From: Candidatus Fervidifonticultor quintus
GTDB taxonomy: Bacteria; Sysuimicrobiota; Sysuimicrobiia; Sysuimicrobiales; Humicultoraceae
Direction of reading: 5' to 3'
Assembly (NCBI GenBank): GCA_031459535.1
Contig: JAVKIJ010000008.1
Coordinates: 1-58,058 of the forward strand
DNA: 58,058 nt
Part shown: one piece after another, positions 25,578-53,712 of the stretch
How the letters are laid out: each line of letters starts with the position of its first letter
How positions within the stretch are numbered: position 1 is the stretch's first letter
Notes under the pieces: generated by a model
Told to the model about the DNA's origin: nothing
The model's database searches: none
Seen by the model: the letters and a program-made list of their open reading frames with translations, nothing else
Translations under genes and position numbers: made by a program

Positions 25578-26525
25578 TCAATCGGGCACGATCCGCGTTC
25601 CCGTCTCGCCCGCCAGTGCCCGCTCGATGTTCTCAGGATTGGTGATGATTGCCTCGCGCCCACCCCGCTCCAGGTACCAGACGATGGCCTGGATCTTCGG
25701 CGCCATGCTGCCCGTGGCGAAGTGGCCACCCTCCTCCAGGTGACGTCGAGCCTCGGACAGCGTCATCCGCGACACCCACTCTTGATTGGGCTTCCCGAAG
25801 TTGAGCGCTACCTTCTCAACCGCGGTGCTGATTAGGAACAGATCGGCCTTGATGGCGGTGGCCAGCAACGATGAGGCATAATCCTTGTCAATCACGGCGG
25901 CCACGCCACGGAGGTTGCCCTCGGCATCGGCGACCACGGGCACGCCGCCGCCGCCGACGGTGATGACGGTGAAGCCGGCTCCGATCAAATTCAGCACGGC
26001 GTGCTCCTCCACGATGCGCCGCGGCAGCGGCGAGGGCACCACCCGGCGCCAGCCGCGGCCCGCGTCTTCCATGATCGCCCACCCTTCCTCATCGCGGCGG
26101 CGCTGTGCGGTTGCCCTGTCCATGTACGAACCGATGGGCTTGCTGGGAGCGGCAAACGCCGGGTCGTCGGCCGCCACCTCGACCTGGGTCACGACCGTGA
26201 CCGCGTGCTTGGCGAGGCCCATGCGCCGGAAGTGGTTGTAGAGGTTCTGCTGCAGCGCGTAGCCGATGGCGCCCTGGGTGTCGGCGCCGCACACGTCGAG
26301 CGGGACCTCGTGCAGTTCGTGGCGGGCCAGTTCGGATCGCCGGAGGATGAAACCGACCTGCGGCCCGTTCCCGTGGGTGATGGCCACGTCCCAGCCCTCT
26401 TTGATCATGGCGGCAATGTGTGCGCAGGTCTCGCCCGCAGCGCGGTACTGGTCCTCGACCGTCTGGTGTTGCGGGTCTTTGATGAGCGAATTCCCCCCGA
26501 TGGCGACCACAGCGACCTTCGGCAT
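25578..26525 (-). CDS. arcC: Carbamate kinase
   Basis: AIGGNSL, THGNGPQVG, KPIG, GWRRVVPSP, VIDKD, GSMAPK. Confidence 0.95.
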   Translation of the reverse strand: MPKVAVVAIGGNSLIKDPQHQTVEDQYRAAGETCAHIAAMIKEGWDVAITHGNGPQVGFILRRSELARHELHEVPLDVCGADTQGAIGYALQQNLYNHFRRMGLAKHAVTVVTQVEVAADDPAFAAPSKPIGSYMDRATAQRRRDEEGWAIMEDAGRGWRRVVPSPLPRRIVEEHAVLNLIGAGFTVITVGGGGVPVVADAEGNLRGVAAVIDKDYASSLLATAIKADLFLISTAVEKVALNFGKPNQEWVSRMTLSEARRHLEEGGHFATGSMAPKIQAIVWYLERGGREAIITNPENIERALAGETGTRIVPD

Positions 26526-26546
26526 GGTGCTCCTCCCTCCGGCCCT

Positions 26547-27521
26547 CTACCCCATGGTCAGAGCCATGACCGCCTTCTGCACGTGGAGCCGGTTCTCTGC
26601 CTGGTCATACACCACTGACCGCGGACCGTCGATGACTGGGTCGGTGACCTCGATGTTCCGGTCGGCGGGGAGGGGGTGCATATAGATCGCCCCGGGCGCC
26701 AGCGCCATGCGCCGCTCATCGGTGATCCAGTCCCTGTACTTCTGGATGATCTGCGCGCCCTGCGCCTCATCGGTGGTGGTGAGCAGCGCACCCCAGCTCT
26801 TGGCGTAGATCACATCACTGCCCCGAAAGCCGGCGTCGAAGTCGTCCAGGATCTCGAAGCCCACCCCGGCCGCCCGGGCGTTGGCCCTGGCCTGCTCCAC
26901 CACGTCGGGCATCAGCCCAAACTCCGGTGGGTGTACCAGCCGCACGTTGAGGCCAAAGCGCGGCAACAGTAGGATCAGGTCTTGCGGAATGCTGATGGGT
27001 TTCTGGTAGCTGGCCGCGCAGGCCCAGCTCACGGTGACGGTCTTGCCGCGGAGATCGCCCTTCTTCTCCATGATGGTCAGCAGGTCGGCGAGCGTCTGGA
27101 ACGGATGCCACAGGTCGCACTGCATGTTCAACACGGGCACCCGGCTGGCGGCGGCCACCTCGTTGATGTAGCGGTTGCCCACCCCCCAATCCACGTGGCG
27201 GATGGCTATGCCGTCGTTGTAGCGGCCCAGGATCTCCCCGATCTCCTTGGCGGTGTCGCCATGGGCGATCTGGGTGGTCCGACTCTCGATGAACTGGGCG
27301 TGACCCCCCAACTGGGCCATGCCAGCCTCAAACGAGGCGCGAGTCCGCGTGCTCGGGAAGAAGAACAGCAGGGCCAGGACCTTGTGGAGCAGATAGGGGT
27401 GGGGGATCCCCAGAGCCCGTTTGCGCTTCAGGTCCACGGCCACATCCAGCACCGTCTCGATCTCCTCCCTGGTCCACTCCTGGAGCGTGATCAGATCGCG
27501 ACCCCGAAGATGCGTCTGCAC
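26547..27521 (-). CDS. Knotted-type transcarbamylase (YgeW/ArgF'-like)
   Basis: STRT, HPFQ, SWACAASYQKPISIPQ (YgeW-like loop), YAKSWG in place of the OTC SMG motif, HPLPAD. Confidence 0.8.
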   Translation of the reverse strand: MQTHLRGRDLITLQEWTREEIETVLDVAVDLKRKRALGIPHPYLLHKVLALLFFFPSTRTRASFEAGMAQLGGHAQFIESRTTQIAHGDTAKEIGEILGRYNDGIAIRHVDWGVGNRYINEVAAASRVPVLNMQCDLWHPFQTLADLLTIMEKKGDLRGKTVTVSWACAASYQKPISIPQDLILLLPRFGLNVRLVHPPEFGLMPDVVEQARANARAAGVGFEILDDFDAGFRGSDVIYAKSWGALLTTTDEAQGAQIIQKYRDWITDERRMALAPGAIYMHPLPADRNIEVTDPVIDGPRSVVYDQAENRLHVQKAVMALTMG

Positions 27522-27532
27522 GGCGCCCCCTC

Positions 27533-28486
27533 CTACTCCACCGCGCCCAGCACCAGCGCCAGCAGGGCCATGCGCACCACCACGCCGTTGAAGGCCTCGG
27601 TCCAGTACCGCGCATGCCGCGTGGCGTCCACATCGGTGGGCAGCTCGTCCATACGCGGCAGCGAATGCAGGATGATGGCTCCCTTCTTGGCTCGATCGTG
27701 CAGCATCTGGCGCGTGACCCTGTAGGCCGGCGGCGTGGTGCCCACCTCACCGGCGCGCTCGTCCCGGGCCTTGGTGTAGTCGGGTTGGACGACGGGCTCC
27801 ATGTAGATCACATCCGCCTCGCCGATCGCGTCTTCGGCGGCGGCCACCTCCTGGTAGCGGACGTTGCGCTCGTCCAGCTCGGCCTTGAACTCGGGCAGCA
27901 GCGACATCTGGGGCGGGGAAACCACGAACGCCTCCACGTCGAACTGGGACATGGCGTAGAGAATGGAGTGCATGGTCCGCATGCGCATGTCGCCCACCAG
28001 CAGGAACTTCAGACCGTCCAGCGTCCCTAGCTCCTTCCAGGTGGTGTAGAGGTCGGTGAGCACCTGAGTGGGGTGCTCGCCCCAGCCGTCGCCGCAGTTG
28101 ATGACCGGGACGGAGGCCCAGCGGGCCGCTTCATGGGGCGCGCCCTGCTGGAAGTGGCGCATGGCGATCACGTCGCCGTAGTATTCCAGCATGTGCACCG
28201 TGTCCTTGATGGACTCCTGGTAGAAGTCGCCGGCACGGGTCATCTTGACGTCGGCGAACCCGAGCACGCTGCCGCCCAGGCGCAGCATGGCCGCCTCCGT
28301 GGCCAGCCGGGTGCGGGTGCTGGGCTGGTAGAATGCCACGCACAGCGTCTTGTGCTTCAACAGGTCGGTGTTGCGCCGGTCCCGGGCGTAGGGTGCCAGA
28401 TCGTCGGCGACCTGGAAGACCCGGAAAAACTCGTTCCGCTCGAAATCCTTGAGCGACAGGATGTCACGGCCCAGAAAGCTCCTCAT
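27533..28486 (-). CDS. ATCase-fold transcarbamylase with an altered substrate pocket
   Basis: STRTR, MRH, NCGDG..HPTQ, HSLPR are present; YMEPVVQ replaces YMTRVQ. Confidence 0.82.
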   Translation of the reverse strand: MRSFLGRDILSLKDFERNEFFRVFQVADDLAPYARDRRNTDLLKHKTLCVAFYQPSTRTRLATEAAMLRLGGSVLGFADVKMTRAGDFYQESIKDTVHMLEYYGDVIAMRHFQQGAPHEAARWASVPVINCGDGWGEHPTQVLTDLYTTWKELGTLDGLKFLLVGDMRMRTMHSILYAMSQFDVEAFVVSPPQMSLLPEFKAELDERNVRYQEVAAAEDAIGEADVIYMEPVVQPDYTKARDERAGEVGTTPPAYRVTRQMLHDRAKKGAIILHSLPRMDELPTDVDATRHARYWTEAFNGVVVRMALLALVLGAVE

Positions 28487-28526: not shown

Positions 28527-29873
28527 TCATCGTTCGACGCCGGTGAAGAGCACGGCGACGCGCTCGCTGGAGTCCACGCCGCCCTCATCCAACAACTGCA
28601 GCAGTCCGGCCAGCCCTGCGGAGCCGGTGGGGTCCACGTTGATACCCGCGGCGGTGTGGGCCAGATCATGGGCACGCCTCAACATCTCCTCGGACACCAC
28701 CACCGGGAAGCCCCCGGTGGTCAGCATGCCGCGGACCACCGCCAGCCAGTCATACGTCTCGTCGTCCAGGATCCCGTGGGCGATGCTCTTGGGCTCCTGC
28801 TCCCACGGCCACATGAACGCCCGCCGGTGCGCGGCCGCGTAGCGCAGAGCCTCCTCGGTGTTCCCGGACTCGGCGGCGCGCCGGGCCACCAAGTCGTAGG
28901 CTCGCTTCAGCGGATGGGCGCCCAGCGTCTGGACCGCGTGGATGCGCGGGAGGCGCGCCAGCGCGCCCAGGCGCACGGCGTCCTCCAACGCCTGGACGCA
29001 TGAGCTCGCCAGGGCCCCACCACCCACCTGGACGATCAGGCGGTCCAGATCGCCGCCGCTGCCCGCCAGCACCGAGACGATCTCGAAGCCGAGCGTCTTG
29101 CCGCCCTCGATGGTCAGGCCGTTCTCCGGCCCCTGGCAGGTAAAGGGCAGCGCGCCGGCTGCGATCGCTTGCTGCAACCGGCGATACGTGGGGTCGCCTG
29201 ACCTGCCTTCCTCGCGTGGGCACACCGTGAGGCGCGCCCCAAGGCGTTGCAGACGATCCAGCACCGGCGGATCGGCCCACGGCGGGACGAAGACCTCCAG
29301 AGGGCGCCCGCCGGCCCGGGCCACCACCGCGGCCGCCAGGGCCGCGTTGCCGCAACTGGCGATCGCCAGGGGTCGGGGCCCGTTGACCCTGCCGGGCGCC
29401 AGGCCGATACGCTCCACAACCTCCAGGTGGATGAGCAGGCCCATCAGGTGCCGGGCCTTGTGGGAGCCCGAGACGTTCCCGGTTTCGTCCTTGATCCAGA
29501 CGCCCCCTCCCCCCAAGAAACCGAGCCGACGGCTCAGGTCCTCGCTGGGGCCGAACGGCGTCACCACGAACCCGCGGCCGTCCACGCCGGCGACGGCCCG
29601 GTCCAGCCGCTCCACCAGCGCCACGTACTCGGCGTCTGAGGAGCCGTGGGACCGGGCCAGGTGGTACGAATACGACAGAGTCCGGTAGCGCACGAACGGA
29701 TTGGGCTCTCCGCCGCCCGGGAACTGCAGCCGCGCAGGATCCATGCGGGTGGCCATCACGTGGTCGATGTCGTCCCCCGGCCGCGCGTTGGGACAGCGGA
29801 ATGGATAGGGCTCCTCCGGCGGCGCCTCCACCCCGCACCCCGCGCAGACCACGACGATGGGCAGGCGGCTCAC
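28527..29873 (-). CDS. Threonine-synthase-like fold-II PLP enzyme
   Basis: [25 protein letters not shown]-terminal CxxC; GTGA overlap with the upstream gene. Confidence 0.8.
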
Positions 29874-31369
29874 AGGACCCGCGCCGCCCCGGTCCGGCCG
29901 TTGAACTCCTCGATCATCGCATCCCACACCGGGATGATGGTGCGCATCTGGCGCCAGAAGTGCTGATCGCGACGTGCCTCGAAGTCGGCCAGGGAGACAC
30001 CCTGCTGCTCGACCCAGGTGTAGTACCCCAGGTTGAAGATCCGGGTGCGCTCGGCGTGCGTCAGTTCCAACAGGTGGTCTATGGTGACGCCGGCGAGGCA
30101 CTCGCCAAACGTCTCCGCTGCGGCCACCTCGTCGAAGCCGCCGGGGAAGTACTTGCGGATCGACTTCGCCCGCTCGCTCCCGTACATGGCGGCGCCGTCG
30201 GTGGCCACGGTCACGATGACATCCGACGGCCCCCACCGGTAGTACCTGGCCACCTTGATGGCCGCCAGCACGTTGCAGATGCTGGACAGCCCCAGCGCGC
30301 CCAGCCCCTCGACCAGCGCCGGAGGCAGTCCCTTGCGCCGGACAAGAAACTCACGCCCCGGGTCGGTGTTGAACAGCACGTCGAGCCGATCGGTGTGCCG
30401 GTCGGAGATGGCGGTGACCAGGTCGGTGTTCATCACGTTGTGGATCAACGGAATGTGCTTGTCGCCAATGCCCTGGATGTTGTGTTCACCAAAACCGTTG
30501 TACAGCATGGTGGGGCACTCCAGAGCCTCGGCGGCCACGATGAGGGTGCCGTGCCGTTCCTTGAGGTAGTCGCCGGCGCCCAGGGTGCCGGCCGAGCCAG
30601 ACGCCGCCACGAACGCGCTGAGCCGGAGACTCGGGTCTCGGGCCGCAAGCGCTTCGAAGATCTGTTCCAGAGCCCGACCGGTGCACAGATAGTGCGCCAG
30701 GTGGTTCCCGAACTCGGAGAACTGGTTGAAGATGACCACGTCGGGCTCCTGCTCCAGCTCGGCGCATCTGTCGTAGATCTCCTTGACGTTGCTCTCCGTG
30801 CCCGGCGTGCGAATGATGTCGGCGGGATCGCTCACCCATCGCTCCAGCCAGGCGAAACGCTCGCGGCTCATCCCCTCGGGCAGCACGGCGATCCCGCGGC
30901 ACCGCATGATGCGCGAGATGGCCACACCACCGCGGGCGTAGTTCCCTGTGGACGGCCACACGGCCCGGTGGCGGGTGGGGTCGAACTGGCCGGTGATCAC
31001 CCGGGGCGCCAGGCAGGCATAGGCCGCCAGCACCTTGTGCGCCCGGATCATGGGGAAACGGTCTCCCAGCGCGATGACCACGGGCGCATCCACACCGGTC
31101 AGCGCCTTGGGCAGCACCAGGTGTTCGGGCAGCGGCACCTGGGTGCGTCGGTCGGCAGCGTTGTACCAGTGCACCCGGTAGAGGTTCAACGGATGTGCGG
31201 CGTCGGGGTCAATGGCGGCCAAGGCCGCCCGAATGTACTGCGGGATGCTGCCGGGACTGGCGAGCTGGGCAAACGTGGGCAGCGCGATGCCCGCCTCCCG
31301 AAACCGACCAACGGCGCGGTCCCGGACCGCGGCGTCCACGAGATCGCGTTCCAATCCCAGTCTGCGCAT
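29870..31369 (-). CDS. Large fold-II PLP-dependent enzyme (cysteine synthase/Trp synthase beta superfamily)
   Basis: AHKV (putative PLP Lys), PSTGNY, NQF, SGSAGT, IQGIG. Confidence 0.8.
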
Positions 31370-34850: not shown

Positions 34851-35867
34851 TTAGAACTCCCCGCCCGCGAACGCGTCGATCATGAGGCGGACGTCGTCGC
34901 CCAGCGGATACAGCACCGGGCACGTACACCCGGCGTCCACGTACTCCCGCACCTTCGCCCGGCACTCCTCGGGGGTCCCTGACGCCGAGATCATCTGGAC
35001 CGCCTCATCCGGGACGATGTGCATGGCGCGGCGGATCTGGTCGGGCCCGGCGGGCCACGTGAGCACCTTGTTGATCTCTTCGATCAGGCCCGGGTCGACC
35101 CCGCTGGCCTTCATGATGTGCGGTTGCTGGCCCAGATACTGGGTCAGCAACTCCCGGGCGCGATCCAGGGCCACGGTGCGGTCCCGGTCGAGGGAACACA
35201 CCACCAGCTGGGGTCGGTCGATGTCCTCCACCCGCCGGCCTGCCCGGGCGGCACCGGTGGCAAGGGCCGCCATGGCCTCGCGGTTGTAGCGCGGGCTGAC
35301 CATGTAGTTGAGCAGGGCGCCGTCGGCGATCTGGCCGGCCAGCTCCATCATCTTCATGCCGGTGGCGCCCACATAGATCGGCACCCGCTTGGGCGACCGG
35401 TCGCCGTGCACAATGTCAATCTCGATGTCGGTGACGCGCACGAACTCGCCGTGATAGGTGACGCGTTCCATAGCCAGCAGACGGCGCGTCACCTCCACCA
35501 CTTCGCGCATGGCTTGCAGCGGCCGCCTGCGGGTGATACCGACCTTGGACGCCAGTGGATCCCACCACGCGCCGATGCCGAGCATTACCCGGCCGGGCGC
35601 CAGATCATCGAGGGTCGCAAACGTGGCGGCCAGCAAGCCCACGTTGCGGGTCCAGCAGTTGACCACGCCGGAGCCCACCTTGATGCGCGTGGTCACGGCC
35701 GCAAACGCCGCCATGGGCACCGTGGCCTCGCGCACCAGACGGCTCTCCGCCTGCCAGACGGCCTCAAAGCCGCGGGCCTCGGCGTAGCGCACGTAGTCCA
35801 TGCCATCACGGATCGGATGCTTGTCCTGCAGGTACAGCGCCACGCGCCCCTTGCTGGTGACTGCCAT
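34851..35867 (-). CDS. LLM-class (Mer-like) flavin/deazaflavin oxidoreductase
   Basis: [44 protein letters not shown]. Confidence 0.85.
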
Positions 35868-35869: not shown

Positions 35870-37198
35870 TCAGGCACCTCCTGCGGGCGTGAAGGGATGG
35901 ACGCCGACCGCCTCCAGGCGCTCCCACAGACGCCGGGCCTGCTCCGCCGTCTCCGCGGCGAGCCGGGCCGCATCGGCGCGCACCAGCTTGCGGTTCTCGA
36001 CCACGACGTCGCCCGCCACGAGTACGTCGCGCACGCACGCGGCGTGAAATCCAAACACCCAGTGTCCGGCCAGGTTGTCCTGGACCAGCGGCGTCGGCGC
36101 CGGATAGTCGAGCACCACCAAGTCAGCCGGCGCGCCGGGTGCGATGGTCCCCAGCAGCGGTTCGGCGAAGATGCGGCCCGCCAGGCGAGCGGCCTGGGCC
36201 GCGCGCGCCAGCGGCCACGTGATGGGCAGGAACACGTCCTCTTCGCGCGCGCGGAAGTACGCGGTCTGCACCTCGCGCCACATGTCGCCCCCGATCCCGT
36301 CCGTGCCAATGACGACCCGCTCGCCCAGCCGTCGCAGCGGGGTGTGCCCGACTGCGTTGTTCATGTTGGAGGTGGGGTTGTGGGCCACGGTGGCGCCCGA
36401 GGTGACCAGCAGGGACATCTCGTGCTCGTCGAGGTGGATGCAGTGCGCCAGCAACGCGTCTGCGGTCAGGGCGCCCGCCGCAGCCAGACGGGCGACGGGC
36501 GGCATGCCGAACCGCGCCAGGGCATCCCTGCGGTCCACCGGGTCCTCGGCGACGTGGATGTGGAGACCGACCCCGGCCGCCCGGGCACCTTCCACGCAGG
36601 CGGCCAGCGTCTCCGCCGACAGCGTGAAGGACGCGTGCGCGCCGAACAGGCCCCTGGTGAGGGCGCGGCGGCGGGCCAGGAACCGGCGGTTCTCCGCCAA
36701 CCCGGCAGACGCCCGCTGCGGCCCGTCACGGTCGCTCACTTCGTAACACAACACCGAACGGAGGCCGAGGCCTTCCAGCGCCTCCGCCACGATGTCGAGC
36801 GACCCGTCAATGGCGTTGGGCGAGGCGTGGTGGTCGATGAGCGTGGTGGTGCCGGCCAGCAGCGCTGCGGCGCCGCCGGCCAGGGCCGAGGCCCGGATCA
36901 TCTCTTCGTCCAGCGCCCGGTCCAGCCGCCACCACACGCGCTGGAGGATCTGGAGGAAATCTGCGGGGGGCGCCAGCCGGTAGGGCATCCCGCGCGCGAG
37001 CGACGAGTACAGGTGAGTGTGGCCGCAGACCTGCCCGGGGACGATCAGGCACCCCGAACAGTCCCGCCGCACACCCCCCGCGGGCGCCGCGCCTACGGCG
37101 CGCACCCGCCCATCCTCGACGACCACGTCCCCCGATGCGACCCGGGGCGGGTCCAGCGAGCTGACCACCAGGGCGCCGGTGAGGCTCAGCGTGGCGAT
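35870..37198 (-). CDS. SsnA-like amidohydrolase; probable ATC start at 37198 (first canonical start is GTG at 37168)
   Basis: [53 protein letters not shown]. Confidence 0.82.
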
Positions 37199-37223: not shown

Positions 37224-39836
<2,613 letters not shown>

Positions 39837-39840
39837 GGGC

Positions 39841-42294: not shown

Positions 42295-42328
42295 CGCCCG
42301 TTCCTCTCCCGGTCGCCGGCCGGCCTCA

Positions 42329-45049: not shown

Positions 45050-45622
45050 TCAGTCGGGCCAATCGCGCCTGAAGATGGGCAGGATGCCCAGGTGCCGAAT
45101 GCCCTCGCGCCGCTCGCCCTCGACCAGCAACACCGTGATCCCCGCGACCTCGCCGCCGGCCTGCCGGACCAGGGTTTCCATGGCCCGCAGCGTCTCACCG
45201 GTGCTCACGATGTCGTCCACGAGGCCCACCCGCCTGTCCTTGATCTTCAGCGCATCGCGGCCGTCCATGTAGAGCTCCTCATGGGTCCTGGCCGTGATGG
45301 GTTTGTAGCGTACCATCAACGGCGTCATCATGAAGGGCCGCAGCTGGCGTCGGCAGACCACGTAAGGTTTGAGCCCCGCCAGCGTGGCAATGGCGTGGGT
45401 GAGGGGAATGCCCTTGGTCTCCGTGGTGACCAACAGATCGCAGGCCTCGAGGCCGGGCGCCAGCAGGCGAGCGGCGCGGTCGATGACCTCGGTGTCGCCC
45501 AGGCTGTAGTAGTAGGCGATCCATGTGTCCGGCGCCACCTGGATGAGCGGCAACGTGCGGACCACGCCCGCCACGTGGAGCTCGTAGGTGGCCTGACCGC
45601 GATACGGGAGGACGTGGGACAC
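45050..45622 (-). CDS. Adenine/purine phosphoribosyltransferase (Thermus-type APRT-like)
   Basis: PRPP loop GLVDDIVSTGET; AGVVRTLP, LGDTE, ETKGIP; GTG at 45622 follows GGAGG. Confidence 0.82.
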   Translation of the reverse strand: MSHVLPYRGQATYELHVAGVVRTLPLIQVAPDTWIAYYYSLGDTEVIDRAARLLAPGLEACDLLVTTETKGIPLTHAIATLAGLKPYVVCRRQLRPFMMTPLMVRYKPITARTHEELYMDGRDALKIKDRRVGLVDDIVSTGETLRAMETLVRQAGGEVAGITVLLVEGERREGIRHLGILPIFRRDWPD

Positions 45623-45658
45623 GGCGAAACCTCCATCTGCGCGGGGTCCACGATGCAG

Positions 45659-45717
45659 GTTCTCGGTCCCCGACGGCGATGCCTGCCTCGGAGGAAGGCC
45701 GGGGGCAGCCGGGGAAG
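45659..45717. promoter_or_regulatory. Back-to-back sigma-H-like promoters: GCAGGC-N18-GAAC (minus, 45659-45686) and GGAGGA-N18-GAAG (plus, 45690-45717)
   Basis: Each motif points into one of the two divergent genes; the plus copy ends 9 nt before the ade ATG. Confidence 0.5.
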
Positions 45718-45726
45718 TCCGTCTCA

Positions 45727-47448
45727 ATGGATCTCTCCAGGCTGATTGCGGTCGCCCGGGCCAGGCGACCAGCCGACTTGCTCTTGTCCAACGCCCGCGT
45801 CGTCGATCTGTTCAACCTCCGGATCGTGGACGCTGACGTCGCCGTCGCCGGCAGCCACATCGCCGGAATTGCCACGGGGCCGACTCGCGGCGCCTATCAG
45901 GCCGTCCTGACCCACGATCTGGAGGGCGCCTACCTCACCGCTGGCTTCATTGACAGCCACGTCCACATCGAGAGTGCCATGGTCAGCGTGCCCGAGTTCG
46001 CCCGCCTCGTCGTCCCCCACGGCACCACCACCGTGATCGCCGATCCTCACGAGATCGCCAACGTGTTGGGCATGAGTGGCATCCGGTACATGCTCCAGGC
46101 GGCCAAGTACAACCCGCTGTCGGTCTTCATCATGGCGTCATCCTGCGTACCGGCCAGCCCCATGGAGAGCGCAGGGGCTGAACTGGGCGCCTATGACCTG
46201 GAGGTCCTCATGCAGGACAAGTGGGTGCTGGGCCTGGCGGAGATGATGAACACGCCCGGGGTTCTGGCCGCTGATCCCGAGGTGCTGGCCAAGATTGCCG
46301 CCGCTGGCGGCCGGCCCATTGACGGCCATGCGCCGGGCGTGCTCGGGTTGGACCTCAACGCCTACGTGGCCGCTGGCATCCGCACCGACCACGAATCCAC
46401 CACGCTGGCTGAGGCCGAGGAGAAACTGCGGCGCGGCATGACCATCCTGCTCCGCGAAGCCACCGGTGCGCGGAATCTGCGCGACCTGCTCCCCCTGGTG
46501 ACCCCGCAGAACAGCCGCCGGTTCGCCTTCTGCACCGACGACCGCACCCCGCTCCACCTCCTCGCCGAAGGCCACATCGACGCCATGGTCCGGGATGCCA
46601 TCGCGTTCGGGCTGGATCCCCTCGTGGTGCTACAGATCGCCAGCCTCAACGCCGCGGAGTGCTTCGGCCTGCGGGACCGGGGCGCGGTGGCACCCGGGAG
46701 GGTCGCCGACCTGGTGGTCTTCGACGACCTGCAGGCACCCAGGCCCCGTCTGGTCTACCGCGGAGGACGTCTGGTGGCTCGGGACGGCGAGCTGTTGCCG
46801 TACGACCGGCCCGAGAGGCTGCCGGCGCTGCGCAGCTCCATCAACGTGCCGCGTAGCACGCTGCACTTTCGGGTACCCGCCCAAGGGCGCCGCGTCCGGG
46901 TGATCGAGGTGATTCCGAACCAGATCATCACCGGCGCCGGCGAGGCGGATGCGACCATCGTGGGGGACGAGGCGGTCGCCGATCCCCAACGTGACCTCCT
47001 GAAGCTGGCTGTCATCGAACGCCACACCGGCAGCGGCCGGGTGGGCCTGGGATTCGTGCGGGGTTTCAATCTGAAGCTGGGCGCCCTGGCGTCGTCGGTG
47101 GCCCACGATGCCCACAACATCGTGGTGGTCGGCACCAGCGATGAGGAGATGCGCGCGGCGGTGGAGTTGATCCTCGAGTTGCAGGGAGGTCAGGTCGCCG
47201 TCGCGGGCCGCGAAGCGGCGGTGCTGCCGCTGCCGATCGCCGGGCTGATGTCGGACCAACCGGTCTCGGTGGTCGCCGAGCAGGCAAGGGCCCTCCAGCG
47301 CATGGCCCGCCGCATGGGCAGCACGTTGCCCGATCCCTTCATGACCCTGGCCTTCATGGCGATCTCGGTGATCCCGGCCCTCAAGCTGACCGACCGCGGG
47401 CTGCTGGACGTGAATCGCTTCGAGCTGGTTCCGCTGTTCCTCGACTGA
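45727..47448 (+). CDS. ade: Adenine deaminase
   Basis: IDSHVHIES, DPHEIANV, LAEMMN, DGHAP, DHE, CTDD, AHDAHN, VIPALKLTD. Confidence 0.95.
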   Translation: MDLSRLIAVARARRPADLLLSNARVVDLFNLRIVDADVAVAGSHIAGIATGPTRGAYQAVLTHDLEGAYLTAGFIDSHVHIESAMVSVPEFARLVVPHGTTTVIADPHEIANVLGMSGIRYMLQAAKYNPLSVFIMASSCVPASPMESAGAELGAYDLEVLMQDKWVLGLAEMMNTPGVLAADPEVLAKIAAAGGRPIDGHAPGVLGLDLNAYVAAGIRTDHESTTLAEAEEKLRRGMTILLREATGARNLRDLLPLVTPQNSRRFAFCTDDRTPLHLLAEGHIDAMVRDAIAFGLDPLVVLQIASLNAAECFGLRDRGAVAPGRVADLVVFDDLQAPRPRLVYRGGRLVARDGELLPYDRPERLPALRSSINVPRSTLHFRVPAQGRRVRVIEVIPNQIITGAGEADATIVGDEAVADPQRDLLKLAVIERHTGSGRVGLGFVRGFNLKLGALASSVAHDAHNIVVVGTSDEEMRAAVELILELQGGQVAVAGREAAVLPLPIAGLMSDQPVSVVAEQARALQRMARRMGSTLPDPFMTLAFMAISVIPALKLTDRGLLDVNRFELVPLFLD

Positions 47449-47454: not shown

Positions 47455-48849
47455 TCAGGGTTCCGCCAGGGGGCCGCGGACCAGATACTGGCCCGCGGCC
47501 GGCTCGCCCACGAACCGGTCGCCATCCACCACCTGCCGGCCCCGGACCCAGACGGCGACGGGGATGCCGCGCACCCGCATGCCCTCGAAGAGGTTGTAGT
47601 CCACCCGCATGTGGTGGGTCCGGGCGCTCAGCGTGCGCTCGGCAGTCAGATCCCACAGCGCCAGGTCTGCGTCGGCGCCTGGGGCGATGGTGCCCTTGCG
47701 AGGATACAGTCCGAAGAGCTTGGCCGGGTTGGTCGCGGTCAGCTCCACGAACCGGTTCAACGAGAGGCGGCCGCCGGCCACGCCGGCATGGTGGAGGGTG
47801 CTCAACCGGTCCTCGATGACCGGCAGGCCGTTGGGGATCTTGGTGAAATCGCCGCGGCCCGCCATCTTGTGGGTGGCGAAGTCAAACGGGCAGTGGTCGG
47901 TCGACACCACCGCCAGGGTGCCGTCCCGCAGCCCGTTCCACAGCGCTTCCTGGTCGCGTCTGGTGCGCAGCGGCGGAGAGCACACGAACTTGGCGCCCTC
48001 GAACCCGGGCCGGTCCAGGTCGTCGGCGGTGAAGAAGAGGTACTGCGGGCAGGTCTCGGCCCAGACCCGCGCGCCCGTGGCCCTGGCGGCTCGCACCTGT
48101 CGCAAAGCCAGCTCGCACGTGAGGTGCACCACGTACAGCGGCGCGCCGGTGGCGGCGGCCAGCGCGATCGCGCGGCCGGTGGCTTCCCCCTCCAGCTCTG
48201 GCGGCCGCGTCAGCGCATGATACTTGGGCGCCAGACGGCCGGTGGCCAGCGCTTCCTCTACCAGGAGGTCAATGGCGTCGCCGTGCTCGCAGTGCACCAT
48301 GGTCAGGAGCCCGACGGCTGCCGCCCGACGCATCACCCGAACGATGTCGGCGTCCTCGAGCATGACCCGGCCCCTGTACGCCATCAACACCTTGACGGAC
48401 GTGATCCCCCAGGCGGGTAGCGATGCGATCTCCTCGAGCACGGCCGGTGTGGCATCGGTGATGGTCATGTGGAACCCGTAGTCAATGCATGCCTTGTCGC
48501 GGGCCTTGGCCTGCCACAGTTCCAGCGCCTCACGCAGGCTGGCGCCCTTGGGCTGAATGGCGAAGTCAAGGTGCGATGTGGTCCCACCGAACGCCGCGGC
48601 GACCTGTCCGGACTCGAAGTCGTCGGTCGAGGTGATCCCGCCCAGGGGCATGTCCAGGTGCGTGTGGACATCAATGCCGCCGGGCAGCAGGTGCAGCCCG
48701 GCGGCGTCGACGATGCGGGCACCGCCCGCGGGCAGGTGTCGTCCGATGACCGCAACTCGCCCGGCTGTGACCAGGACGTCGCCCTGGTAGGTCTGCGCGG
48801 CGGTCACGATGGTGGCGCCGCGGATCAGGGTGGCAGAATCACCGGCCAT
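47455..48849 (-). CDS. hydA: Dihydropyrimidinase/hydantoinase
   Basis: GGIDVHTH, SVKVLMAY, HCE, VVHL, ETCPQYL, STDHCPF, IPNG. Confidence 0.9.
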   Translation of the reverse strand: MAGDSATLIRGATIVTAAQTYQGDVLVTAGRVAVIGRHLPAGGARIVDAAGLHLLPGGIDVHTHLDMPLGGITSTDDFESGQVAAAFGGTTSHLDFAIQPKGASLREALELWQAKARDKACIDYGFHMTITDATPAVLEEIASLPAWGITSVKVLMAYRGRVMLEDADIVRVMRRAAAVGLLTMVHCEHGDAIDLLVEEALATGRLAPKYHALTRPPELEGEATGRAIALAAATGAPLYVVHLTCELALRQVRAARATGARVWAETCPQYLFFTADDLDRPGFEGAKFVCSPPLRTRRDQEALWNGLRDGTLAVVSTDHCPFDFATHKMAGRGDFTKIPNGLPVIEDRLSTLHHAGVAGGRLSLNRFVELTATNPAKLFGLYPRKGTIAPGADADLALWDLTAERTLSARTHHMRVDYNLFEGMRVRGIPVAVWVRGRQVVDGDRFVGEPAAGQYLVRGPLAEP

Positions 48850-48907: not shown

Positions 48908-50059
48908 CTACGGTTCCTTGGGCCAGGGCCCGACGACGCCCGGGGCCGCCCACTCCAGGCTCGTGAGCTCGCCGACAGTCATGCGCTTGCCCGCCGGAAC
49001 CCGCAGGATCCCCTTGCGGTCCTTGATCGGCCCCGTGAACGGGTCAAACGTCACTTTGGGATCGGCCATCTGCGCGTGGCGCTTCATCACCAGCGCGTAG
49101 ACGGACAACCGGCCGAGATCCGGGGTCATCACCCGGACCGCCTCGAGCCTGGCCTTGTAGGCCGGGTTGATCGGCACGCCGAAGTCACCGCCCAGCTCCA
49201 CGGCCTTCTCGGCCAGCAGCCACCAGTAGTCCACGTTTGCCAGGTTCTCGGTAGTGTACTTGCCCGCGTGGACCTTGGAGAGGAAATCCACGTAGATGGT
49301 CTCCCAGTGGACGAGCTGGCCCGAGACAACGTGGTTGGGCGCGAACTTCTGCATCGGCGAGTAGTGCCCGAAACTGGGGAGGTTGCGCCGGGCGGCAACC
49401 TGCACCACCGTGGGCGAATCCTCGGTGAAGGCGAACACATCGGCGCCTTCGGCGATGAGGGCCTCGGTGGCCTCCTTGGCCGCGGCTGGATTGAACCACT
49501 CGAAGATCCACCGGACGTGAACCGTCGCTTTGGGGTTGACGGTCCGCACCCCCAGGGCGTACGCGTTGAGGTGCCGCTTGACCTCCGGAATCGGAAACGC
49601 GCCCACATAGGCCACCTTGTTGGTCTTGGTGAGGGCGCCGGCCATCAGGCCGTTGAGATAGTAGATCTGGTAGAAGTCCGCCATGTAGGTGGCCATGTTG
49701 GCATGGCGCTTGAAGCCCGACGCGTGAGCGAAGATGTGGTTGGGGTATCGCTTGGCCGCCGCCAGCGTCCCGTCCATGAAGCCAAAGCTGGTGGTGAAGA
49801 TGACCCTGGCACCTTGCTGGATCATGCGGTCGATGTACGGTTCAACCTGGCCCTCCGGCACCGACTCCACGTAGATGGTCTCCAGCCACGGGAGCTTCTG
49901 CATGGCGATCTTGCGCGCCTGATCGTGGGCATGAGTCCACCCGTAGTCGCCGATGGGCCCCACGTAGATGAATCCCGCCTTGAGCTTCGGCTGCGCGAGG
50001 CCCGGCGCTGCCAGGCTCGCCAGCAGTACGAGGACCACCACAGCGTATCTGTAGCCCAT
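48908..50059 (-). CDS. BMP-family nucleoside/purine ABC substrate-binding protein
   Basis: GFIYVGPIGDYGW, TTSFGF, FPIPEV, WFNP. Confidence 0.9.
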   Translation of the reverse strand: MGYRYAVVVLVLLASLAAPGLAQPKLKAGFIYVGPIGDYGWTHAHDQARKIAMQKLPWLETIYVESVPEGQVEPYIDRMIQQGARVIFTTSFGFMDGTLAAAKRYPNHIFAHASGFKRHANMATYMADFYQIYYLNGLMAGALTKTNKVAYVGAFPIPEVKRHLNAYALGVRTVNPKATVHVRWIFEWFNPAAAKEATEALIAEGADVFAFTEDSPTVVQVAARRNLPSFGHYSPMQKFAPNHVVSGQLVHWETIYVDFLSKVHAGKYTTENLANVDYWWLLAEKAVELGGDFGVPINPAYKARLEAVRVMTPDLGRLSVYALVMKRHAQMADPKVTFDPFTGPIKDRKGILRVPAGKRMTVGELTSLEWAAPGVVGPWPKEP

Positions 50060-50147: not shown

Positions 50148-51014
50148 TCAGCGCTCGCCGCTCACGTAGGGCACGCCGAGCGCCTCGGGGGCACCCTGTC
50201 CCCGCCTCCCCCCGGCCGTGGCCGCGAGCGCCACGACAGTGAACGCAAACGGCATCATCTTTAGCAGTTCCGGCGCCACCCATGCCTGCAGGCGAAACGA
50301 CAGGTGGAACAGGGCGCCGAACAGCACCGAGCCAATCACGGCGCGCAGCGGATCCCACGACGCGAAGATGGCGATGGCGATCACGATCCACCCCATCCCG
50401 GCCGTCATGCCCTCGGTCCAGGCCGGGCGGTAGGCCACGGACAGGAATCCACCGGCGACCCCGGCCAGCAGGCCGCCAACGACCACCGCCAGGTAGCGCA
50501 CCAGCGCCACGTTGACGCCCAGCGCATCGGCGGCGGCCGGCATCTCACCCGTTGACCGCAGGACGATGCCCCAGCGCGTGTGGTACAACACAAACCACAT
50601 CAGGACGGCCAGCACAAGTCCCAGATAGGTGAGGGTCGAGACTTCCGGCAGGGTGTGCACCAGGGGCGTCCCTTCGTAGCCCCGGCCCAGCAGTCCGGCG
50701 AGGCCAAGGCCCAGCATGGTCAGTGCCAGCCCGGACACGTACTGGTTCGCGCGGAGCGTCACCGAGACGAACGCGTGGAGCAGCGCGGCCAGGCCACCGA
50801 CGGCCGCAGCGACGACCAGGGCCAGGGCGGGATTGCCGGTGCCCTGCGCCGAGGCAAACGCGAAGAACGCCCCGAGGATCATCATGCCCTCGACGCCCAG
50901 ATTCACCACGCCCGCCCGCTCCGCGTAGATCTCGCCCAGGGCGCCCCAGAGGATGGGCGTGCCCAGCGCCAGCGCCCGGCCGACGGTGGTGGCGATCCAC
51001 CCGCCGTCGCTCAT
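50148..51014 (-). CDS. Nucleoside ABC permease (NupC-like)
   Basis: ERAGVVNLGVEG, ANQYVSG, TAGMGW, APEALG.PY. Confidence 0.9.
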   Translation of the reverse strand: MSDGGWIATTVGRALALGTPILWGALGEIYAERAGVVNLGVEGMMILGAFFAFASAQGTGNPALALVVAAAVGGLAALLHAFVSVTLRANQYVSGLALTMLGLGLAGLLGRGYEGTPLVHTLPEVSTLTYLGLVLAVLMWFVLYHTRWGIVLRSTGEMPAAADALGVNVALVRYLAVVVGGLLAGVAGGFLSVAYRPAWTEGMTAGMGWIVIAIAIFASWDPLRAVIGSVLFGALFHLSFRLQAWVAPELLKMMPFAFTVVALAATAGGRRGQGAPEALGVPYVSGER

Positions 51015-52159
51015 CAGCCCTCTCCTCCCGCCGACGGCGGGCTCGGCTCCGCCGGATGGGCTTCAGCGGCCGCAGCGGCTGCCCGGGCCGGCGCCACGCG
51101 CACGCGGTAATACAGCAGGCGCTCGCTGCCGATCAGGAAGAACAGCATGAGGCCGTTGAACACGTCGGTCACCCGGAATGGCATCTGCATGACGACCTTG
51201 AGCACGTCGCCGCTGGTGAAGATCAGACCGAGGAAGGTCGCGGTGAGCACCACGGCCAGCGGACTTCCCCGGGCCAGCCAAGCCACGATGATGGCGGCAT
51301 ATCCATATCCGAGGGAGACCTGGTTGGGGTCCAGTAGCTTGTGGTGCACCCCAGCTACCTCGCCCACACCGGCCAGTCCCGCCACCCCGCCGGAGACCAG
51401 CATGACCACCAGGGTCGTGCGCAGCGGGTTGATGCCCGCGTAGAGGCCGGCCGCAAGGTTCTGGCCCAGGACCCGGATCTCGAAGCCCAGGCGCGTGCGG
51501 GACAGCACGAACCCCAGTACGAGGGCCAGGGCTAGGCCGATGAGCAGCGTGGGCCAGTGGACCCGGGTGCCCGGAATGAGCGGGAGCCGCGCCGCCTCGG
51601 CAAACGGATCGGTGTACGCAAATCCAAACATGGTCGCGCCCTTCCAGGGGCCGTGGACCAGCCACGCGACCACGTAGAGGGCGACGTAGTTCATCATCAA
51701 CGTGGTGATAACCTCGTTGACCTCGAGCCGCAGCCGCAGCAGCGTGGGCATCAGGCCCCACAGCGCCCCGGCGACAAAGCCGGCCAGGAACATGGCCGGG
51801 ATGATCCACCGGCCGTGGATGGGCGCGAACAGCGCCACGGCCGTGGCGCCCACGGCGCCGGCCAGCAACTGTCCTTCCGCCCCGATGTTCCAGAACTGTG
51901 CCCGGAACGCGAGGGTCAGCCCGACGCCGCAGAGCAGCAGGGGAATGGTGCGGCGGACGACTTCGGAGGCGGCCCCGACGTTGATGAACGTCTCCCGCAC
52001 GACCGCCGCGTAGGCGCCCACGGGGTCGGTGCCGTAGGCCCAGAACACCAGACCCGCCGCCGCCAGCGCCGCCGCGATGGCGAGCAGCGACACGCCAAGC
52101 ATCCACCCGGTGGTGGGGTTGACGTCGCGCTCGATGACCAGGGGGCCGAGGCGCCTCAC
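51014..52159 (-). CDS. Nucleoside ABC permease (NupB-like)
   Basis: WNIGAEGQ, NEVITTLMMNY, GYGYAAIIVAWL. Confidence 0.9.
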   Translation of the reverse strand: MRRLGPLVIERDVNPTTGWMLGVSLLAIAAALAAAGLVFWAYGTDPVGAYAAVVRETFINVGAASEVVRRTIPLLLCGVGLTLAFRAQFWNIGAEGQLLAGAVGATAVALFAPIHGRWIIPAMFLAGFVAGALWGLMPTLLRLRLEVNEVITTLMMNYVALYVVAWLVHGPWKGATMFGFAYTDPFAEAARLPLIPGTRVHWPTLLIGLALALVLGFVLSRTRLGFEIRVLGQNLAAGLYAGINPLRTTLVVMLVSGGVAGLAGVGEVAGVHHKLLDPNQVSLGYGYAAIIVAWLARGSPLAVVLTATFLGLIFTSGDVLKVVMQMPFRVTDVFNGLMLFFLIGSERLLYYRVRVAPARAAAAAAEAHPAEPSPPSAGGEG

Positions 52160-53712
52160 GGCCGGTGTCCCGCCATCATCAGGCCGATCTGCTCCGGGCT
52201 GGCGCGGTCGGCAGGCACCGTGCCGACGATCTCGCCGCGAAAGATGACGGCAACCCGGTCCGACAGTGCCAGCACCTCGTCCAGGTCCTCTGAGACCAGA
52301 AACACGCCCGCGCCCTGTTCCCGCCGACGGAGCAACAGGCTGTGGATCTGCTCAGTCGCGCTCACGTCGAGCCCGTACGTGGGATGCGACGCGATGATCA
52401 GCCCCGGCTGGGCGGCCAGCTCCCGGGCCAGGATGAGACGCTGGATGTTGCCGCCTGACAGCAGCTTTGCCGGTAGAGCGGGCGACGGCGTGGCGATCTC
52501 ATACTCCTCGATAAGTCCCCGGGCAAACTGCCCGATGGCCGCGTAGTCCAGCAGCGGGCCGCGGGAAAACGGCGGATATCGGTAGCGGCGCAGGACCAGG
52601 TTCTCGGCGACCGACATGCCAGGTACGATCCCGGTTCGGATGCGGTCCTCGGGGATGTGCGCCGCGCCGGCCTCCAGCACCTCGCGCGCCGACCGGTTGG
52701 TCACATCGCGCCCCAGGATCCGCACACGGCCCCGGCGTGCCGGCCGCAGGCCCGCGAGCACCTCCACCAGCTCGCGCTGCCCGTTGCCAGCCACACCGGC
52801 CAGACCCAGAATCTCTCCGCCGCGTACTACAAACGACACCCCGCGCAGGGCCGGGAGACCACGATCCGTGGTCGCCTCCAGATCCTCGACCGCCAGGGCC
52901 TCGCCCTCCGGCGTCCTGGCCGGCTTGTCCACCCGGAACTCGACCTCGCGGCCCACCATCATGCGGGCCAGCGCCCGCTTGTCCACCGCGAGGGTGGAGG
53001 CGGTGCCAACGAGCCGGCCTTTGCGCAACACCGAGACGCGATCGGCGATGGCCGCTACCTCGTCCAGCTTGTGGGTGATGAAGATGATGGCGTGCCCCTC
53101 GGCCTTCATGCGCCGGAGCACGTCGAACAATCCCTGGGTCTCCTGCGGGGTGAGCACACTGGTCGGCTCGTCGAGGATGAGGATGCGGGCACCCCGGATC
53201 AGAGCCTTGAGGATCTCCACCCTCTGGTGCTCGCTGGGCGACAGCTCCCAGATCCGCGCCCGGGGGTCGATGACCAGCCCATATCTCTCCCCCAGGGCGG
53301 CGATGCGGGCCTCGATGCGCCGTGCGGGAAAGAGAAACGACTCCTCGGGCAGTCCCAACGCCACGTTCTCTGCCACGGTGTGGCGCCGCACCAGGAGAAA
53401 GTGCTGCGGGACCATGCCGATGCCCAGCGCGATCGCATCGCGAGGCGACCGGATGCGCGCCAATCTGCCCCAGACGACCACCTCGCCCGCGTCGGGCTGG
53501 TAGACGCCGTACAACACGTTCATCAGGGTGGTCTTGCCCGCCCCGTTCTCGCCGAGCAGCGCGTGGACTTCTCCCGCCCGGACTTCAAGGGTGATGCGGT
53601 CGTTGGCCACGACTCCGGGGAAGGTCTTGGTGATGTCGCGCAGGACCACGACCGGTCCGGCGGCAGGGACCGGTGTGGCGACCGACGGCGGGGCGCTCTG
53701 GGGGCGAATCAC
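52156..53712 (-). CDS. Nucleoside/sugar ABC ATPase with two NBDs (NupA-like); GTG start at 53712 is inferred
   Basis: FPGVVAND, GENGAGKTT, LDEPT, ITHKL, GVAGNGQ, IPEDR, LSGGN. Confidence 0.9.
   Translation of the reverse strand: MIRPQSAPPSVATPVPAAGPVVVLRDITKTFPGVVANDRITLEVRAGEVHALLGENGAGKTTLMNVLYGVYQPDAGEVVVWGRLARIRSPRDAIALGIGMVPQHFLLVRRHTVAENVALGLPEESFLFPARRIEARIAALGERYGLVIDPRARIWELSPSEHQRVEILKALIRGARILILDEPTSVLTPQETQGLFDVLRRMKAEGHAIIFITHKLDEVAAIADRVSVLRKGRLVGTASTLAVDKRALARMMVGREVEFRVDKPARTPEGEALAVEDLEATTDRGLPALRGVSFVVRGGEILGLAGVAGNGQRELVEVLAGLRPARRGRVRILGRDVTNRSAREVLEAGAAHIPEDRIRTGIVPGMSVAENLVLRRYRYPPFSRGPLLDYAAIGQFARGLIEEYEIATPSPALPAKLLSGGNIQRLILARELAAQPGLIIASHPTYGLDVSATEQIHSLLLRRREQGAGVFLVSEDLDEVLALSDRVAVIFRGEIVGTVPADRASPEQIGLMMAGHRP

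Follow-up and report, generated by a model that had tools for sequence, protein, structure and literature searches.

A candidate variant of the reductive urate pathway in a Sysuimicrobiota genome

How might a bacterium degrade urate by the reductive route when three of the enzymes known for that route are not seen beside the others? The question is raised by a gene cluster on contig JAVKIJ010000008.1 of Candidatus Fervidifonticultor quintus (assembly GCA_031459535.1), which was analysed over its full length of 58,058 nucleotides and is here called the window. An earlier note on this DNA had proposed that YgfK, YgeY and DpaL (YgeX) of the established pathway are replaced in the cluster by a luciferase-family (LLM) oxidoreductase, a second carbamoyltransferase resembling aspartate carbamoyltransferase (ATCase) and a pair of pyridoxal-phosphate (PLP) enzymes. 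The window is one contig (C117) of a 3.1-Mb metagenome-assembled genome (MAG; G000) in 138 contigs, with an estimated completeness of 88.85% and contamination of 5.24%.

The reductive urate pathway was established in gut bacteria by two studies of 2025, those of Li et al. (PMC12507026) and Liu et al. (bioRxiv 10.1101/2025.04.24.650524); what is said here of these papers, and of the commentary PMC12990295, refers to the portions of their text available to us. Urate is converted to 2,8-dioxopurine by XdhD/XdhAC, YgfK reduces this product, and ring opening by SsnA and HyuA gives 2,3-diureidopropionate, from which phosphorolysis by YgeW (with ATP formed via YqeA) and hydrolysis by YgeY lead to diaminopropionate and, through YgeX, to pyruvate (PMC12507026; bioRxiv 10.1101/2025.04.24.650524). 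YgfK is NAD(P)H-dependent in E. coli, and UacX has been proposed for the same step in C. difficile (PMC12507026). Two questions are listed as open, namely in which order the ureido groups are cleaved and the D/R stereochemistry (PMC12990295).

Our analysis suggests that the cluster in the window is real and conserved, and that it very probably serves purine or urate catabolism of the reductive type. Also probable, with less assurance, is that its genes specify a version of the reductive urate route (via 2,8-dioxopurine, 'yanthine') with the steps proposed below, each of which we infer from homology and comparative genomics. Because spurious long open reading frames are common at the G+C content of the window (~69%), genes were picked by their third-position G+C (GC3) and their starts were then refined. 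Proteins were identified by Pfam and NCBIfam profile scores, given here as score versus family cut-off, and E. coli proteins, taken from locus L108, were searched for by tblastn at E<=1e-5. The genes at issue, with lengths in amino acids (aa), are:

25578..26525, minus strand: carbamate kinase (YqeA counterpart), 315 aa; NF009007 388 versus 266, TIGR00746 358.8 versus 358.25.
26547..27521, minus strand: TC1, a compact YgeW-lineage carbamoyltransferase, 324 aa; OTCace_N and OTCace domains.
27533..28486, minus strand: TC2, a divergent ATCase-lineage carbamoyltransferase, 317 aa; TIGR00670 248.6 versus 236.95.
28527..29873, minus strand: PLP1, a ThrC/serine-racemase-like fold-II PLP enzyme with an N-terminal Cys-rich ribbon, 448 aa; PALP 131 bits.
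29870..31369, minus strand: PLP2, a fold-II PLP enzyme resembling CysK and cystathionine beta-synthase (CBS), with N- and C-terminal extensions, 499 aa; PALP 35.9 versus 35.
34851..35867, minus strand: Mer-like LLM oxidoreductase, 338 aa; Bac_luciferase 232 bits.
35870..37168, minus strand: SsnA-like amidohydrolase, 432 aa; NF005540 413 versus 444, TIGR03314 400 versus 455.5.
37224..39866 (start 39836 or 39866), minus strand: fused 2Fe-2S and molybdopterin hydroxylase of the 'selenium-dependent XDH' family; TIGR03311 1014 versus 830.
47455..48849, minus strand: D-hydantoinase/dihydropyrimidinase (HyuA counterpart); TIGR02033 580 versus 393.

With Pfam and NCBIfam, all gene types listed in the earlier note were recovered where it had placed them; several of its starts were too early, and PLP1 is now taken to start at 29873, the LLM at 35867 and TC2 at 28486.

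The window shares with the E. coli cluster (xdhD-ygfM, ygfK, ssnA, hyuA, ygeW, yqeA, ygeY, ygeX) counterparts of HyuA, YgeW and YqeA, a putative counterpart of SsnA, a molybdenum (Mo) hydroxylase gene beside ssnA, a conventional xanthine dehydrogenase (XDH) clustered with purine deaminases, and the means to make ATP via carbamoyl phosphate and carbamate kinase. Aligned over 436 residues, the SsnA-like protein and E. coli SsnA are 36% identical (229 bits), by far the best match although under both curated family cut-offs. The hydantoinase is 41% identical to E. coli HyuA (337 bits), and its orthologue in locus L032, 72% identical, lies directly before the PLP2 gene. The carbamate kinase, whose ATG is preceded by a Shine-Dalgarno-like sequence, is 49% identical to YqeA, and its gene lies 21 nt from that of TC1. 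The fused Mo hydroxylase (Fer2, Fer2_2, Ald_Xan_dh_C and MoCoBD_1/2 domains) adjoins ssnA here and in most related loci; it differs from E. coli XdhD, to which it is 26% identical, in passing the cut-off of a clostridial 'Se-dependent XDH' family (TIGR03311).

Some LLM loci (L029, L030, L077, L080, L082 and L096) also encode a full-length protein of the E. coli XdhD type (35-38% identity) that is distinct from the TIGR03311-type enzyme, so that two lineages of candidate dioxopurine dehydrogenase may exist. Outside the window, a selD match (374 bits, G000:C46:26773-27696; genome, contig, positions) contains one in-frame TGA, as do its equivalents in three genomes of the genus, which suggests a selenocysteine-containing SelD and a use of selenium that would fit the 'Se-dependent' Mo hydroxylase family; the cluster-bearing genome G001 has no selD above cut-off. 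A single in-frame TGA also occurs in SsnA matches from one genus (G052:C15:3701-4936, G054:C8:2415-3662 and G057:C74:12527-13771), where it could represent selenocysteine, a frameshift or a split gene.

As the earlier note had claimed, ygfK, ygeY and a recognisable dpaL are absent from the window, and the whole-genome search gave none above cut-off either. The E. coli YgfK, YgeY and YgeX queries had no tblastn match in the window and only weak, generic ones elsewhere in the genome. Across the 3.1-Mb MAG, the best profile scores were 298 versus 835 for YgfK (TIGR03315; the UacX family PF01180 was not searched), 124 versus 321.5 for YgeY (TIGR03526) and 40 versus 532 for DpaL/YgeX (TIGR03528), the last with no match in the window. 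Each of the three enzymes was likewise found in none of five other cluster-bearing genomes (G001-G005). Partial TIGR03315 matches on contigs C88 and C57 were considered as a YgfK encoded in trans and rejected, as one is a pair resembling NfnAB and the other a GltD-NuoE fusion next to FolD, both of them generic GltD-type modules. Four tandem M20-family peptidase genes (G000:C128:18402-24320) encode proteins 25-27% identical to YgeY, far under the YgeY cut-off. Enzymes of the oxidative route were also sought: the earlier note had seen no uricase in the window, and neither uricase (PF01014) nor OHCU decarboxylase (PF09349) was found in this genome as a whole, while a search for allantoicase in six genomes of the genus gave no match but had a positive control that gave none either.

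The distribution of the genes was followed at two scales. First, loci were collected by a scan with the LLM, one genome per species, and the best 80 of 587 relatives (LLM 62-86% identical) were used, most of them from Actinomycetota and Chloroflexota; presence was scored by tblastn of the window proteins, and as many loci are short the counts are lower bounds. Among the 80 loci, SsnA was detected in 55, PLP2 in 39, TC1 in 38, TC2 in 32, PLP1 in 30, carbamate kinase in 18 and hydantoinase in 13, and the E. coli queries matched in 0 (YgfK), 1 (YgeX) and 5 (YgeY). Second, all 94 genomes of the window's class, 54 of them at least 90% complete, were profiled whole and tabulated by hand; the genomes are related to one another, the pattern runs along genus lines, and the tallies are raw counts with no P value. 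SsnA was present in 32 of the 94. All genomes with LLM (29), TC2 (20), PLP1 (20) or YgeY above cut-off (8) were SsnA-positive, and YgfK and DpaL were each found in 0/94. Without the unpublished genome G021, which is positive for SsnA, TC2, LLM and PLP1, each of those four tallies drops by one.

At both scales TC2 and YgeY tended to exclude each other. Of the 55 SsnA loci, 30 had TC2 only, five YgeY only, none both and 20 neither; of the 32 SsnA-positive genomes, 19 had TC2 only, seven YgeY only, one both and five neither, the last five all being less than 90% complete or having the cluster at a contig edge. PLP1 went with TC2: in the SsnA loci the two were both present in 27 cases, both absent in 24 and discordant in four, they shared 19 genomes, and PLP1 occurred in none of the seven YgeY-only genomes. 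Dozens of loci in several phyla carry the module with its genes reshuffled, for instance as PLP2-PLP1-TC2-XdhD-SsnA-LLM-FAD-FeS-PucD-TC1-carbamate kinase, and in loci L024 and L038 a sub-variant without TC2 reads YgeY-XdhD-(317-aa PALP enzyme)-SsnA-LLM-...-TC1, an arrangement that is expected if TC2 with PLP1 and PLP2, and YgeY with one PLP enzyme, are alternatives. The distribution is patchy and all-or-none by genus (8 of 31 genera); together with identities of 75-86% between window proteins and proteins of Actinomycetota MAGs, this suggests horizontal spread of the whole cluster.

The ATG of the LLM gene lies 2 nt after the ssnA stop codon, and within the class the LLM was found in 29/32 SsnA-positive and 0/62 SsnA-negative genomes, while the E. 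coli YgfK query had no match in the 80 loci anchored on the LLM. Its 17 best NCBIfam matches are all F420-type LLM families, each under its cut-off (Mer 176 versus 276), and its ten best relatives in the PDB are all F420 enzymes (Mer 148.7 bits), compared with ~30 bits for FMN enzymes. Consistent with a supply of this cofactor, cofE was above cut-off in all five genomes tested, this one included, and in locus L088 a CofC-like gene immediately precedes that of the LLM. We propose that the LLM would act as an F420H2:2,8-dioxopurine reductase in place of YgfK or UacX.

TC1 scores below every NCBIfam cut-off (YgeW NF005538 181 versus 453, TIGR03316 167 versus 500, ornithine carbamoyltransferase (OTC) 240 versus 306), and its closer affinity emerges from motifs and phylogeny. 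Its identity to E. coli YgeW is 34% (190 bits). It shares with YgeW the motifs QCDxxHPxQ and KSWG and an SYxKPxSxPQ insertion, and does not have the OTC SMG motif; the long insertions and the C-terminal tail of YgeW are missing from it. In a carbamoyltransferase tree of 28 rows, TC1 and E. coli YgeW form a clade (support 100/99) apart from the two true OTCs of the genome (G000:C58:807-1736 and G000:C115:5534-6457, 429 and 419 bits); YgeW stands on a long branch there, and the usual caveats for long branches apply to the grouping.

TC2 belongs to the ATCase side of this tree, in a clade with support 100/100 and a stem of 0.86, and its best solved relative is the archaeal ATCase 1ml4 (244 bits). 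Mapped on E. coli PyrB, TC2 keeps S52-R56, R105, H134 and Q137, which form the carbamoyl-phosphate site of ATCase, and R167, the arginine that binds the alpha-carboxylate. K84, R229 and Q231, which bind aspartate in the E. coli enzyme, are lost in 11/11 members of the TC2 clade and kept in 4/4 PyrBs of related genomes: throughout the clade K84 is replaced by Y within a loop insertion, R229 by P, and Q231 by T or E with a five-residue insertion. Four of five related genomes have a separate, canonical and higher-scoring PyrB as well as TC2. TC2 as the housekeeping PyrB was rejected on the lost active-site residues and on its restriction to SsnA-positive genomes. We propose instead that TC2 may be a second phosphorolytic de-carbamoylase standing in for YgeY.

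As to which ureido group each transferase would take, we favour TC1 on the omega(3)-ureido group and TC2 on the alpha(2)-ureido group. The first assignment follows from the YgeW/OTC descent of TC1, in keeping with citrulline-like ureido groups, and matches what Liu et al. report for YgeW (bioRxiv 10.1101/2025.04.24.650524); the second, from an ancestor of TC2 that acts on an N-carbamoyl-alpha-amino acid, the lost residues being those that hold the aspartate beta-carboxylate. Li et al. propose another order of ureido cleavage than this scheme (PMC12507026).

For the two PLP enzymes, structure points away from DpaL. The GTG start of PLP1 overlaps the PLP2 stop codon (GTGA) and is marked by a rise in GC3. 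In PLP1, C10, C13, C27, H38 and K139 are invariant among 23 sequences, the NCBIfam ThrC score is 81 versus 303, and the AlphaFold2 model (pLDDT 87.5) finds threonine synthases as its best Foldseek matches, followed by serine/aspartate racemases and threonine deaminases. PLP2 has invariant K112, STGNY (140-144) and GSAG (258-261) among 26 sequences and a cysKM score of 71 versus 344; its model (pLDDT 91.5) is closest to the CBS core, beta-cyanoalanine synthase and cysteine synthases, with TM scores of 0.76-0.85 depending on the target. No diaminopropionate ammonia-lyase was among the Foldseek matches listed for either protein, and both carry only the generic name 'PLP-dependent enzyme' in the Protein Atlas. 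A distant DpaL identity of PLP1 or PLP2 was rejected, since the window has no TIGR03528 match, the nearest structures are ThrC and racemases for the one and CBS and CysK for the other, and only the PF00291 fold is shared. A prediction of a PLP1-PLP2 complex (one job, both alignments) scored 0.00 against a mark of 0.32, which says nothing either way.

Taken together, these data are compatible with the following route. Purines would enter, probably via a BMP-type ATP-binding cassette (ABC) system, and adenine deaminase, an 8-oxoguanine-deaminase-like enzyme and a xanthine dehydrogenase of PucD, FAD and FeS subunits would convert them to urate. The fused FeS-Mo enzyme encoded beside ssnA would take the 6-oxo group off urate to give 2,8-dioxopurine, which the Mer-like LLM would reduce with F420H2; 2,3-diureidopropionate would then arise by two ring openings, that of the pyrimidine ring by SsnA and that of the hydantoin ring by the hydantoinase. 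Phosphorolysis would remove both ureido groups, where the established pathway hydrolyses one of them: TC1, of YgeW lineage, would take one, in the favoured scheme the citrulline-like 3-ureido group, and TC2, of ATCase lineage with a rebuilt amino-acid site, would take the other, the 2-ureido group of an N-carbamoyl-alpha-amino acid like carbamoyl-aspartate. From the two carbamoyl phosphates, carbamate kinase could make as many as two ATP. Pyruvate and ammonia would be formed from 2,3-diaminopropionate by the two fold-II PLP enzymes, PLP1 being the likelier of the two to act by beta-elimination or racemisation. Such a variant could reasonably be expected to conserve more energy: each urate would give two carbamoyl phosphates, and the ATP yield might double.

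How much of this is new can be judged against the closest systems. The E. coli cluster has YgfK, YgeY and YgeX where the window has the Mer-like LLM after ssnA, an ATCase-lineage second transferase and two non-DpaL PLP enzymes. Pairs of a catabolic carbamoyltransferase and a carbamate kinase also serve the agmatine/putrescine and oxalurate routes; compared with such pairs, two different transferases would feed one kinase in the window, one of them from the biosynthetic ATCase lineage. The arginine deiminase pathway, too, combines phosphorolysis of a ureido compound with ATP formation by carbamate kinase, a parallel named by Liu et al. (bioRxiv 10.1101/2025.04.24.650524). The C. difficile variant, in which UacX stands for YgfK and the hydrolytic UacY for YgeW and YqeA (PMC12507026), is similar in that pathway steps are swapped for non-orthologous enzymes, but it differs in direction, as it gives up the ATP-yielding phosphorolysis that the window cluster appears to double. 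For SsnA clusters of Chloroflexota, Li et al. suggested, from neighbourhood analysis alone, a putative F420-dependent PF00296 enzyme beside ssnA in place of YgfK/UacX (PMC12507026); the LLM of the window shares 62-75% identity with those from Chloroflexota loci. The available text names Chloroflexota alone for the F420 variant, whereas the closest named relative of the window is a Sysuimicrobiota (CSP1-3) MAG and most close loci are from Actinomycetota; the network of Li et al. also counts any PF00185 protein as YgeW and any PF00291 protein as YgeX (PMC12507026), which would hide TC2 and the PLP pair. Literature searches turned up no published form of the pathway with two transferases or with an ATCase-like one, and the main text of the paper describing the phylum Sysuimicrobiota (CSP1-3) mentions none of purine, xanthine, urate, F420 or carbamate.

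Thus the F420-type LLM swap is already in print, and what is added here is the distribution of the LLM, TC2 and PLP1 within the class, the lack of YgfK and DpaL there, the near-exclusion of TC2 and YgeY, the active-site losses of TC2 and the grouping of TC1 with YgeW. The core idea of the earlier note, non-orthologous replacement within a reductive urate pathway, fits all the comparative evidence gathered and is partly new only; its phrase of three unrelated enzyme types goes too far, as TC2 and the PLP enzymes share superfamilies with YgeW (PF00185/PF02729) and YgeX (PF00291). Step by step, the LLM in place of YgfK is upheld by its co-occurrence with SsnA and by the YgfK tally, though it had been published for Chloroflexota (PMC12507026). 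TC2 in place of YgeY draws support from a pattern that is near-exclusive and not absolute. For the PLP pair in place of DpaL, the DpaL tally and the tracking of TC2 by PLP1 (one genome each where either occurs alone) are favourable, and the PLP roles are the least secure.

Several observations weigh against the proposed route. In G013, which belongs to the genus of the window, one cluster contains both YgeY and TC2, and TC2 therefore does not replace YgeY strictly. The need for two PLP enzymes is unexplained, and their roles are the weakest part of the proposal. SsnA and TC1 fall under the NCBIfam cut-offs, as the reductase does for all F420-LLM models, and the hydantoinase sits in a neighbouring unit and has three paralogues in the genome. 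The LLM is missing an SsnA partner in the fetched stretch of 25 of the 80 loci, six of them with full 10-kb flanks, which means that the LLM family is not bound to ssnA everywhere; in one such locus the LLM follows a CofC-like gene and in another it adjoins an amidohydrolase. OHCU decarboxylase occurs in three and uricase in one of four cluster-bearing relatives (G001, G002, G003, G005), so the cluster can coexist with the oxidative route and is not always its stand-in. The absences in this MAG are provisional given its completeness and contamination, and a canonical PyrB was not found in it, TC2 being the sole gene above the ATCase cut-off here; the missing pyrB is most simply put down to incompleteness, and likely to incompleteness or the 5% contamination. 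As a separate matter, the OHCU decarboxylase gene of G002 (C2:990629-991048) lies ~8 kb from a reductive-type cluster, near locus L036.

The alternative that survives best accepts the upper pathway as described but assigns to the PLP2-PLP1-TC2 sub-module other chemistry than a second phosphorolysis and a diaminopropionate ammonia-lyase. A PLP enzyme might act directly on albizziin, the mono-ureido acid with a free alpha-amino group, by beta-elimination or beta-replacement, or the trio might turn the C3 skeleton into another amino acid, for example serine or cysteine, while some other N-carbamoyl compound would be the substrate of TC2. Such chemistry would suit the modelled structure of PLP2, that of a synthase of beta-substituted alanines (CBS, cyanoalanine synthase, CysK), which would swap beta-substituents, unlike the lyase DpaL; it would also suit the travelling of the three genes as a unit, the genome that carries YgeY besides TC2, and the unsettled order of ureido cleavage in the literature (PMC12990295). 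We nevertheless regard it as unlikely, as TC2 retains a complete carbamoyl-phosphate site together with the arginine for the alpha-carboxylate, which makes carbamoyl transfer on an amino acid the simplest reading, the near-exclusive pattern of TC2 and YgeY (19, 7, 1) fits replacement of the YgeY step, and nothing in the cluster would handle urea, were it released.

A second alternative, in which YgeY and possibly further canonical enzymes are encoded in the 11% of the genome that was not assembled, TC2 and the PLP genes being extras, is improbable. It takes its force from the state of the fragmented MAG, where the unseen canonical pyrB shows that real genes are missing, and from a same-genus genome that has YgeY inside the cluster (locus L021). 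Against it, YgfK and DpaL are missing throughout the class and from the five other cluster-bearing genomes, one of them recorded as a single chromosome (L034), YgeY is above cut-off in only one of five other genomes of the genus, and the position of the relative's ygeY is taken by ABC transporter genes in the window. Least credible of all is an ordinary purine salvage and oxidation locus with housekeeping or unrelated transferases, TC2 being PyrB and TC1 with carbamate kinase being of the arginine-deiminase type: TC2 does pass the ATCase cut-off as the only such gene found in the MAG, and TC1 scores nearly as well for the OTC/AOTC models as for any, but TC2 is without K84, R229 and Q231, relatives mostly have a PyrB of their own besides, its presence in 0/62 SsnA-negative genomes is a pattern that no housekeeping gene would show, and TC1 lacks the SMG motif and sits with YgeW while two genuine OTCs are encoded elsewhere.

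The preferred reading, two phosphorolytic transferases within a reductive urate pathway, would have wider consequences. If it is right, the pathway extends to environmental, largely uncultured lineages and to the redox cofactor F420. We know of no earlier catabolic use of an ATCase-lineage enzyme, a point on which no search was made, and TC2 would then be the first as far as we are aware. TC1 and TC2 are two natural enzymes for asking which ureido group is cleaved first, an open question according to PMC12990295. A broader claim is put forward tentatively, as a possibility that we would not yet favour: the cluster would represent widespread environmental anaerobic purine catabolism, hosted by hot-spring CSP1-3/Sysuimicrobiota, soil Actinomycetota and Chloroflexota and distinct from the gut pathway at three steps, with F420-dependent dearomatisation, two ATP per urate, an ATCase descendant adapted to an N-carbamoyl diamino acid as one of the transferases, and a new PLP pair perhaps for D-configured intermediates. 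The substrate preferences of TC1 and TC2 would, on this broader reading, also settle the disputed order of cleavage.

The genes of the operon run on the minus strand from 45727 to 25578, 16 in one direction with intergenic gaps of -11 to 55 nt at the chosen starts. GTGA start/stop overlaps occur at two junctions, PLP2/PLP1 (29870-29873) and FeS subunit/deaminase (43699-43702), and suggest translational coupling at both. A terminator and promoter scan downstream of the carbamate kinase gene found nothing. A second minus-strand unit, 53778-47455, encodes a BMP-type ABC importer, with the D-hydantoinase as its last gene. Besides the genes already listed, the two units and the divergent gene between them comprise:

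31405-32295, minus strand: Dpp/Opp-type permease C.
32298-33239, minus strand: Dpp/Opp-type permease B; BPD_transp_1, OppC_N and BPD_transp_1_N domains across the permease pair.
33244-34821, minus strand: family-5 binding protein; SBP_bac_5.
39841-42339 (or start 42402), minus strand: PucD; TIGR03196 864 versus 784.
42329-43702, minus strand: 8-oxoguanine deaminase-like protein; NF006055 613 versus 532.
43699-44169, minus strand: 2Fe-2S subunit; Fer2_2.
44166-45035 (or start 45062), minus strand: XDH FAD subunit; FAD_binding_5 and CO_deh_flav_C.
45050..45727 (start 45622 or 45727), minus strand: phosphoribosyltransferase resembling adenine phosphoribosyltransferase, first gene of the run; NF005592 181 versus 143, Pribosyltran.
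45679..47448, plus strand: adenine deaminase (ade), divergent from the operon; TIGR01178 583 versus 472.
48908-50059, minus strand: BMP/PnrA-family binding protein; Bmp domain.
50148-51014 and 51014-52159, minus strand: BMP ABC permeases; nearest to the NCBIfam ABC_B6 permease family, under cut-off.
52156-53778 (or start 53712), minus strand: BMP ABC double ATPase; nearest to the NCBIfam ABC_B6 ATPase family, under cut-off.

The Dpp/Opp-type importer parts in the operon have no ATPase gene with them, and tblastn found homologues in none of the 80 related loci, so these genes are an accessory insertion outside the conserved module. In the same-genus genome G010, the spacing between PLP1 and LLM suggests a similar ABC insertion. 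The closest named locus (L021, Candidatus Fervidifonticultor tertius; at NCBI, Candidatus Sysuimicrobiota, CSP1-3) encodes five cluster proteins that are 66-86% identical to those of the window. Genes before 25578 and after 53958 are unrelated to the cluster and include a two-component system, a Liv-type ABC transporter, proline/ornithine genes, FtsEX, SurE and the his operon. Elsewhere in the genome there are two more Mo-hydroxylase clusters (G000:C81:16962-21941 and G000:C64:11019-15089; loci L102 and L103): in one of them FAD-FeS-Mo genes are followed by a hydantoinase-like gene, and in the other FeS-Mo genes are followed by an LLM paralogue, 32% identical, and BMP binding proteins.

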